This document shows, piece by piece, positions 19,785 through 53,198 of a DNA stretch of 64,000 nucleotides. The DNA comes from Candidatus Latescibacterota bacterium (GTDB taxonomy: Bacteria > Latescibacterota > UBA2968 > UBA8231), in contig CBDFJF010000002.1 of assembly GCA_965248265.1 (NCBI GenBank), forward strand, positions 800,001 through 864,000, in the 5' to 3' direction. Made by a program: the position numbers and the translations under genes. Below the pieces are notes generated by a model. It was not told where the DNA came from. It worked only from the letters and a program-made list of their open reading frames with translations, and made no database searches. The number at the start of each line of letters is the position of its first letter. Within the stretch, counting starts at the first letter, position 1.

Positions 19785-19813
19785 TTGGATGTTGGACTGG
19801 GGCTGCATATATT
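19785..19813 (+). promoter_or_regulatory. Putative sigma70 promoter of csp1
   Basis: TTGGAT-17 nt-TATATT, about 150 nt upstream of the csp ATG. Confidence 0.45.
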
Positions 19814-19819
19814 ATCCGG

Positions 19820-19960
19820 CACATCGTCTCCGCCATCGGGCGGGGATCCACCACGCGTCAGCAGTCGTTCTTCGCTGTACTGAGTAGATCCTACCCATGT
19901 TCGGTTCGAACGTTCTGCTAGCACCACAGTTCAACAGATCGAAATGGGAGGGTTCGCATC
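19820..19960 (+). ncRNA. Structured 5' leader of csp1 (candidate cis-regulatory RNA)
   Basis: Shares GCAGTCGT.CTT..GCTGTACTGAGT...TCCTA.CCC and AGCACC....TTCAAC with the csp2 leader; 19881-19906 can pair with 19937-19961 over the SD. Confidence 0.6.
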
Positions 19961-20170
19961 ATGGCTGACCGCCAGTCAGGAACAGTGAAGTGGTTCAACG
20001 ACTTCAAGGGCTTCGGTTTCATCGAGGTCGAGGGGGGCGGTGACGTCTTCGTGCACCACAGCTCGATCCAGATGGAGGGCTTCAAGAGCCTCGCCGAGGG
20101 TCAGCGGGTGGAATTCGAGGTCGTCCAGGGCCAGAAGGGTCCCGCCGCGGAGGCTGTCGTAGTAGTCTAA
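19961..20170 (+). CDS. csp: Cold-shock protein (CSD)
   Basis: GTVKWFN..KGFGFI (RNP1), DVFVH (RNP2); 69 aa. Confidence 0.95.
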
Positions 20171-20192: not shown

Positions 20193-20230
20193 AAGAGGGC
20201 GGTGGCAGTTGCCATCGCCCTCTTTTTTTT
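20193..20230 (+). terminator. Rho-independent terminator
   Basis: AAGAGGGCGGTGGC...GCCATCGCCCTCTTTTTTTT. Confidence 0.88.
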
Positions 20231-52724: not shown

Positions 52725-52740
52725 GCCGGCTATTTTTTCG

Positions 52741-52769
52741 TTGCCGATAACCCGGTGAGCCCCTATACT
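52741..52769 (+). promoter_or_regulatory. Sigma70 promoter of csp2
   Basis: TTGCCG-17 nt-TATACT. Confidence 0.65.
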
Positions 52770-52774
52770 ATACG

Positions 52775-52930
52775 CCATCGGCCTCGGACCATTTTGGCCG
52801 GGGCAAAACCACAAGCTCCACAAGTTGGCAGTCGTACTTAAGCTGTACTGAGTTAGTCCTAACCCCAGTCCAGTGTAAGCACCCTGTTTCAACGTTGCAC
52901 CCTGCACAAGGGGAAAGGATAGACTCAGCT
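52775..52930 (+). ncRNA. Structured 5' leader of csp2 (candidate cis-regulatory RNA)
   Basis: Shares a motif with the csp1 leader; CTGAGTTAGTCCTAACCCC (52848-52866) can pair with GGGGAAAGGATAGACTCAG (52910-52928). Confidence 0.6.
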
Positions 52931-53140
52931 ATGGCACGTGAAACCGGAACCGTAAAATGGTTCAATGATGCCAAGGGTTTTGGATTCATCGAGCGTGGCG
53001 ACGGTGGCGACGTGTTCGTCCACTTCAGCGCCATTCAGGGCGAGGGCTTCAAGACGCTGACCGAGGGTCAGCAGGTCGAATTCGACGTCGTCGAAGGGCA
53101 GAAGGGTCCTGCCGCCGAGAACGTTTCGGCACCTGCGTAG
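52931..53140 (+). CDS. csp: Cold-shock protein (CSD)
   Basis: [24 protein letters not shown]; 69 aa. Confidence 0.95.
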
Positions 53141-53166
53141 ATCGATCCGAAGTAAAGCTGTAACTG

Positions 53167-53198
53167 GGCGATGTGTGGAAACGCACATCGCCTTTTTT
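53167..53198 (+). terminator. Rho-independent terminator
   Basis: GGCGATGTGT-ggaaac-GCACATCGCC-TTTTTT. Confidence 0.88.

Follow-up and report, generated by a model that had tools for sequence, protein, structure and literature searches.

A putative cis-acting leader element of cold-shock protein mRNAs in one Latescibacterota family, and a possible two-state switch in two of its copies

We propose that the 5' leaders of csp1 and csp2, two cold-shock protein genes in a 64,000-nucleotide stretch of a Latescibacterota genome (the window), represent an undescribed cis-acting element of csp mRNAs in one family of this phylum, and that the two window copies form a two-state switch. We assign this reading a probability of about one half. 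The element consists of a 5'-proximal hairpin (P1), a long-range helix (P2) and, within P2, a run of units of the form GUAG-loop-CCUACC, present once in each window copy and 0–6 times in relatives. The Shine-Dalgarno sequence (SD) and AUG follow about 20–35 nt downstream of P2. Rfam scans and full-text literature searches returned no description of this csp leader element. Relatives are csp loci (L numbers) from GTDB family f1, the host's own family.

Results

Two csp leaders share an ordered core

csp1 (19961..20170, + strand) encodes a 69-aa cold-shock domain (PF00313 match, 95.7 bits), and csp2 (52931..53140, + strand) matches PF00313 with 107.9 bits; the 7.3-Mb genome contains six cold-shock-domain matches. 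A consensus scan called the csp2 promoter (52741..52769, +; TTGCCG, 17-nt spacer, TATACT), with transcription predicted to start at ~52776. The putative csp1 promoter was read by eye (19785..19813, +; –35 TTGGAT, 17-nt spacer, –10 TATATT; predicted start ~19820), and we consider it tentative because the consensus scan did not call it. The AAATGCTT..GGAT...CATATATTAT arrangement is also found upstream of the csp1-type leaders of L046 and L047. Judged by the promoter-to-ATG distances, the csp1 and csp2 leaders would both be about 140–155 nt long. Intrinsic terminators lie downstream of csp1 (20193..20224, +; a 14-bp stem followed by a U run) and of csp2 (53166..53193, +). TTG 52895, which the ORF tool had taken as the start of csp2, was rejected, as alignment with relatives placed the start at ATG 52931. 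The TTG-extended reading frame (52895–52930) would swallow the SD and part of the leader.

P1 appeared in the minimum free energy (MFE) folds of both window copies, at 19826..19847 in csp1 (+; GUCUCCGCC-AUCG-GGCGGGGAU) and at 52781..52804 in csp2 (+; z = –2.38). The cores that follow, each made up of P2 and one unit, extend over 19855..19928 (+) and 52822..52897 (+). P2 joins a 5' box (GUUGGCAG.CGUUC) to a 3' box (GAACG..CUG..CCAAC) through about 11–20 bp. Its 5' strand in csp1 (19859..19870, +; CAGCAG.CGUUC) has its partner at 19908..19921 (+; GAACG..CUGCU(A)G), and this helix was the MFE structure of nascent transcripts ending at 19925–19945, with a probability of about 0.9. The corresponding 5' strand in csp2 (52824..52844, +; GUUGGCAG..GU.CUUA.GCU) formed 17 pairs with the 3' strand (52872..52893, +) in the MFE folds of 52822–52897 and of nascent transcripts (P 0.95–0.97). 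The single csp1 unit (19884..19896, +; GUAG-AUC-CUAC-CC, GUAGAUCCUACCC) fits the family unit GUAG-N2-6-CCUACC. The csp2 unit (52853..52866, +; UUAG-UC-CUAA-CCCC, UUAGUCCUAACCCC) is a doubly changed variant of GUAG...CUAC, its outer pair being altered on both sides.

The initial annotation had reported ordered blocks common to the two leaders, and these were recovered: GCAGTCGTTCTTCGCTGTACTGAGTAGATCCTACCC at 19861–19896 has its counterpart at 52828–52865. MAFFT alignments of the csp1 and csp2 leaders gave mean column identities of 69% and 74%, and a degenerate 24–26-mer of the core had exactly two sites in the 7.3-Mb genome (reversed control, 0). The block AGCACC....TTCAAC is the region of the P2 3' strand. 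CGCCATCGG also occurs in both leaders (19831–19839 in csp1, 52773–52781 in csp2), but since it lies inside P1 in csp1 and at the predicted start, before P1, in csp2, its homology is doubtful.

A small GCAGU/GCUGU hairpin had been put forward as a further conserved structure. It was weak (–4.1 kcal/mol in csp1 and –2.6 kcal/mol in csp2) and is not conserved, because GCAGU belongs to the P2 5' strand, where it pairs with the block on the AGCACC...TTCAAC side. The GCUGU arm falls in a block limited to this genome (20-mer with ≤1 mismatch, 132 class genomes). Beyond csp1 and csp2, the 20-mer of the unit block had two matches, one at another place in this genome and the other in genome G107, neither of them upstream of a csp gene. 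Of these two matches, L014 lies, judged by eye, inside coding sequence on the opposite strand, and L012 lies upstream of an unrelated gene. When 41 relatives were searched at the DNA level with a BLAST-type tool, the csp1 leader as query gave nothing useful and missed csp2 itself, and RNAalifold applied to the two window leaders alone returned an uninformative structure.

P2 pairing is retained through sequence change

The csp leaders of relatives contain, in this order, a 5' box (G)UUGGCAGUCGUUC, tandem GUAG-N2-6-CCUACC(C) units, a 3' box GAACGCUCUGUUCCAAC, the SD and the ATG. P2 was present in the MFE folds of nearly all relatives and spanned 50–165 nt. When 24 leaders were aligned with MAFFT, blind to structure, 83.7% of the P2 cells were paired, compared to 25–46% with a slid partner, and 6 of the 16 P2 pairs were changed on both sides. 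We built a covariance model, R1, on 12 short-run seeds (77 positions, 20 pairs), free of SD and coding sequence. The R1-based alignment (A5; 46 matches, 44 distinct) is fitted to the model and had 84.3% of its cells paired versus 33–51% when slid, with double-sided changes at 10 of 20 pairs and a covariation score of 0.156 versus 0.119 (0/500 shuffles as high). The modest covariation reflects the high conservation of the P2 sequence, and the many G-U pairs in P2 fix the sense strand.

In most representatives, 8–25 nt separated P1 from the 5' box downstream of it; P1 stem sequences varied widely, and the mean z was –1.5 (z < –2 in 9 of 24). Whole-leader folds had modest z-scores, –1.6 for csp1 and –2.3 for csp2.

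The 5' box (UUGGCAGUCG; window 19858–19870 and 52825–52836) is nearly identical to the start region of most csp genes of the family (AUGGCAGAUCG). By this resemblance, the 3' box could in principle pair with either of them.

The element accompanies csp genes within one family

When the window was searched with R1, only the csp1 and csp2 sites were found (64.3 and 66.3 bits). Both were among the seeds, so their own scores arise by construction and the independent support comes from relatives. R1 matched 49 of 132 class genomes, all from f1, namely this genome (G000) and 48 of the 75 other f1 genomes; no match was found in the 56 genomes of families f2, f3 and f4. A phylum-wide sample gave matches in 37 of 63 f1 genomes and in 0 of 87 genomes from 13 other families. 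Reading of the coordinates placed all 56 of the listed R1 matches about 20–35 nt upstream of a csp coding sequence and on the same strand. Among metagenomic csp loci encoding the best relatives of Csp2, none of 80 matched R1. The earlier claim of a lineage-specific, conserved and structured csp leader is thus borne out, with R1 matches in f1 only and coverage by no Rfam family.

Scanning 185,579 species genomes for an exact pattern yielded 23 loci, all in metagenome-assembled genomes, titled Latescibacterota/Latescibacteria (18) or Gemmatimonadota/-etes (5); one record with the latter title shares its leader, letter for letter, with a Latescibacterota-titled record. The strict filters used for many genomes miss long unit runs (G008 and G016 were positive by eye), and the prevalence in f1 is therefore underestimated. 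Conservation of the element extends over at least 13 genera.

This spread bears on the explanation that the two window leaders are alike for passive reasons, through recent duplication or gene conversion of csp loci, or as parts of an upstream sRNA gene or attenuator. The 12-mer GCTGTACTGAGT, identical in csp1 and csp2 and not found in relatives, would fit gene conversion at that place. However, conservation over so many genera with P2 pairing kept through sequence change, and R1 matches that all abut a csp start on the same strand, argue against passive similarity. Neither leader contains a terminator-like hairpin followed by a U run, the only such sites being downstream of the two coding sequences. 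We consider this explanation very improbable.

Three further observations concern other csp loci. The third csp gene of this genome (L003, contig C1 at about 1683830–1683990, outside the window) has a divergent leader with about three GUAG...CUAC-type units; GUUGGCAG is present on its 5' side, CUGCAAC could close a short P2, and the R1 E-value was 0.15. In genus g13 (L031, L038, L044, L045) two tandem csp genes lie ~340 nt apart, each with its own leader copy. A tRNA-like sequence, noted by eye, apparently follows directly after the sixth, divergent cold-shock-domain gene of this genome (L006, contig C2 at about 3559700–3559825, outside the window).

Units vary in number within P2

In 63 leaders the commonest unit hexamers were TCCTAC (102) and CCTACC (97). 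In some units (L018, L030, L044) the hairpin lacks an intact closing pair. The computed energy of the unit hairpin was –1.2 kcal/mol at 37°C and –4.6 kcal/mol at 5°C in csp1, and –0.3 and –2.4 kcal/mol, respectively, in csp2.

One way to read these features is as a platform for a trans-acting factor, held out by the P2 clamp. Csp might bind the pyrimidine-rich UCCUACC, the run might serve as a standby site or enhancer for S1/30S, or another RNA-binding protein might be recruited, with unit number setting the affinity or threshold. In favour of a platform, the units are conserved mainly in sequence, a leader may have anything from 0 to 6 of them, csp leaders are the only places with tandem runs (13 of 14 matches, in the genomes of 5 relatives) and complementarity of the units to the SD is not general. 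On the other side, the partners are candidates only, the 16S rRNA stretch examined contained no complement to the units, and some members (L035–L037, by eye) keep P2 without a unit, making units dispensable for the core. On balance we hold the platform explanation to be unlikely, but deserving of attention.

Inspected by eye, the leaders of L035–L037 (genera g18 and g8) retain the outer P2 GUUGGCAG ... CUCUGUCCAAC and have no GUAG/CCUACC unit; these loci are below R1 detection at E ≤ 0.01. The clamp helix P2 may be older than the units.

A modular regulator could also be imagined, in which P2 acts as the clamp, the unit mini-hairpins serve as cold-stabilised decoys over pyrimidine-rich anti-RBS or Csp-binding segments, and the number of units (0–6) tunes the temperature or Csp threshold for expressing csp genes in different Latescibacterota. 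We regard this model as distinctly doubtful. Its decoy part, by which mini-hairpins that are marginally stable at 37°C would gain about 3–4 kcal/mol at 5°C, seems to us just as speculative.

Two other candidates were rejected. Unit spacings of 16, 17 and 25 nt rule out the conserved reading frame of a leader peptide. Complementarity of the units to 16S rRNA and clustering of units elsewhere in the genome were looked for, and neither was found.

SD pairing competes with P2 in the predicted folds of the window copies

An SD-sequestering stem had been proposed for csp1, and folding calculations upheld it there. The anti-RBS arm (19881..19906, +), which overlaps the unit and lies inside P2, faces an RBS arm (19937..19963, +) that contains the SD GGGAGGG (19946–19952) and the start codon (19961–19963). 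The pairing of 19881–19906 with 19937–19961 was computed at –23.3 kcal/mol (z = –3.7), and only 2 of 1000 dinucleotide shuffles were as good. An equivalent was found in csp2, where 52842–52867 pairs with 52905–52936 at –32.7 kcal/mol (z = –6.2; 0/1000 shuffles). Its anti-RBS arm is 52842..52866 (+) and its RBS arm 52908..52936 (+), which includes GGGG (52910–13), the SD AAGGA (52915–19), ACUCAG (52923–28) and AUG (52931–33). Both SD-sequestering helices appear in the MFE folds of the window copies.

For each of 26 non-redundant leaders of the family, we compared the energy of the duplex between that leader's unit run and SD region with the energies of 200 shuffles. SD pairing was significant (p ≤ 0.03) in 8 of the 26 (csp1, csp2, L015, L018, L019, L029, L032, L050), so the proposed stem, strong in both window copies, did not hold family-wide. 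The remaining 18 leaders were not significant, including those of the closest csp1-type relatives, L046 (z = +0.93) and L049 (z = –0.13), and z was above 0 in the large g14 group (L058, L077). Units acting as general anti-SD mimics throughout the family were rejected on this result. In L015, the csp2 ortholog, complementarity is retained with altered sequence (–23.5 kcal/mol, p = 0.015), and in L029, L050 and L054 units and SD regions differ in matching ways, as seen by eye. Sequestration of the RBS is enriched and not universal; the conserved core is P2 plus units.

Since the anti-RBS arm is inside P2, the two helices cross. P2 and the SD-sequestering helix (11–19 bp and about 20 bp, with 0–9-nt connecting loops) would be mutually exclusive on geometric grounds. 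Predicted folding of nascent csp1 and csp2 RNA supports this exclusivity. Transcripts that stop short of the SD region had a P2 probability of 0.89–0.97; extending them through the SD and AUG brought it to 0.00 and left the SD paired, at 15 as well as at 37°C. The unpaired probability of the SD in the full-length csp1 fold was 0.00–0.01. The closed fold was favoured by 9.2–9.9 kcal/mol from 10 to 45°C, that is, with no equilibrium shift with temperature, and any temperature effect must thus be kinetic or factor-assisted. P2 persisted in the full-length ensemble of 12 of the 26 representatives, figures that are sensitive to the assumed 5' end.

A block preceding the unit in csp1-type leaders (CUGUUCUGAG in the L046/L049 type, CUUCGCUGU in csp1) is complementary to codons ~6–10 of the coding sequence (CAGGAACAG / ACAGUGAAG). 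In full-length MFE folds window positions 19870–19879 pair with 19982–19990, and loci L046 and L049 behave alike. By this pairing with early csp1-type codons, the coding region may join the closed state.

A possible sequence of folding events

On our preferred reading, the window leaders would work as a two-state translational switch. P2 would form first during transcription and leave the RBS open (ON). Once the SD region had been made, a more stable fold would pair the unit block with the SD-to-AUG segment and break P2 (OFF). Cold could slow the refolding of P2 into the closed state, a kinetic effect of the kind proposed for E. coli cspA. Instead or in addition, Csp that has accumulated might, as an RNA chaperone, catalyse refolding and so exert negative feedback. 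We infer this order for csp1 and csp2, along with the resting state and the control by cold or Csp, from the folds described above. Thermosensing and Csp autoregulation, both suggested by the initial annotation, may be regarded as candidate roles of these leaders.

The same helix can be read as a determinant of processing or stability, with a double-strand-specific RNase such as RNase III cutting the long, imperfect P2, Csp melting or masking it so that mRNA processing would be autoregulated, and RBS pairing of secondary importance in the window copies. It is P2, not the RBS helix, that is conserved family-wide, and in single-unit leaders P2 and the unit form one long irregular stem-loop, as this alternative would lead one to expect. 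There is also a precedent, since PMC5815144 describes S. aureus CspA as binding its own 5' UTR and disrupting a hairpin that is an RNase III target. However, inspection by eye did not reveal in P2 any U-rich internal loop resembling the CspA site of S. aureus, and cleavage by RNase III leaves the highly significant unit:RBS complementarity in csp1, csp2, L015, L029 and L050 unexplained. We believe that processing is an unlikely main role of P2, though one with something to be said for it. Processing of P2 and a protein-binding platform made by the units need not exclude each other or the switch.

RNA contigs at the csp2 locus

A near-identical csp2 locus is covered by RNA-library contigs from 4 studies. 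Whole contigs from three of them correspond to 52789–53169, 52796–53132 and 52804–53103, and another covers 52733–52906. The starts of the whole contigs (52789, 52796, 52804) are only a weak hint at the predicted start at ~52776, as contigs prove neither transcript ends nor strand and the start sites are predictions. Contig coverage is confined to 52733–53169, and a gap between contigs proves nothing. Among environmental contigs from close relatives, the listed variants included none within 52789–52930 (142 nt of leader), compared to 8 variable places in the 210-nt coding sequence; several runs have variants in common, so these counts are not independent. Taken together, the contigs hint weakly that the csp2 leader is transcribed together with its gene and is constrained. 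The csp2 leader may be more constrained than synonymous sites.

The Rfam cspA model matches coding sequence and terminator

RF01766 (cspA) was the sole Rfam family to reach threshold in the window. It did so on csp2 with 81 bits (gathering score 78), and it scored 31 bits on csp1 and 17–55 bits on the loci of eight relatives, with nothing on their leaders. The alignments begin at 52891 in csp2 and at 19895 in csp1, leaving the conserved blocks upstream and unmatched. They skip 110 UTR positions of the model in csp2 and 90+11 in csp1, the matched columns being coding sequence and terminator. A match to an existing family, which the initial annotation had proposed to look for, was thus obtained for csp2, but as its score derives from the coding sequence and terminator it does not identify the leader. 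A caution follows for other users of the model, as RF01766 can reach threshold from coding sequence alone.

Discussion

What is understood of csp gene control by long leaders comes largely from E. coli and, to a lesser extent, from S. aureus. If our reading is correct, the element would be an independent and structurally unrelated solution, used in an uncultured marine and sediment phylum without genetics. It is a candidate new Rfam family, and the covariance model R1 and two stems whose opposition can be tested, P2 and the anti-RBS helix, are now at hand. The natural series of 0–6 units offers a way to ask how RNA switches are tuned. Should the kinetic-trap model be true, the same logic would have arisen convergently in two csp leaders that are unrelated.

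The closest functional comparison is E. coli cspA, for which PMC13271884, citing Giuliodori 2010, presents a two-conformation model of the 5' UTR. The window leaders resemble it in having a csp 5' UTR of about 140–155 nt and two alternative folds, one giving better access to the start than the other; as in that model, the more translatable fold would be expected to come first or to persist in the cold. Two exclusive folds of this sort, the open one first, were obtained in silico for csp1 and csp2. Unlike RF01766 cspA, however, the leaders show no homology to it, P1, P2, the units and the boxes are without counterpart there, and the host belongs to Latescibacterota and not to the enterobacteria.

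The S. aureus cspA 5' UTR likewise has a long leader hairpin, comparable to P2 alone or to P2 capped by the unit hairpin, and by analogy with PMC5815144, P2 would be a plausible site for an RNA-chaperone product on its own mRNA. The leaders are not similar in sequence, however, a U-rich CspA site was not recognised here and cleavage is putative only; the helix here encloses variable repeated units and competes with an RBS-pairing fold.

ROSE and fourU thermometers open on heating by melting. The window leaders resemble them in that a pyrimidine-rich segment further upstream pairs with the SD. Unlike in those thermometers, the closed fold is favoured by about 9–10 kcal/mol from 10 to 45°C, and a response would be cold-ON and kinetic. 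Rfam scans of csp1, csp2 and the loci of relatives gave no match to thermometers of the ROSE or fourU type.

CsrB/RsmZ-type RNAs are independent sRNAs that carry GGA motifs and titrate proteins. The only match to the Csr family was CsrC, with 15 bits, on the terminator. Tandem short hairpin units of conserved sequence and variable copy number are common to these RNAs and to the csp leaders, but here the CCUACC units reside in an mRNA leader, are closed by a helix and occur upstream of csp genes only. We class the element as a new RNA family belonging to a functional kind already known, the regulatory csp leaders, and its unusual feature is the run of units, variable in copy number, inside a clamp helix.
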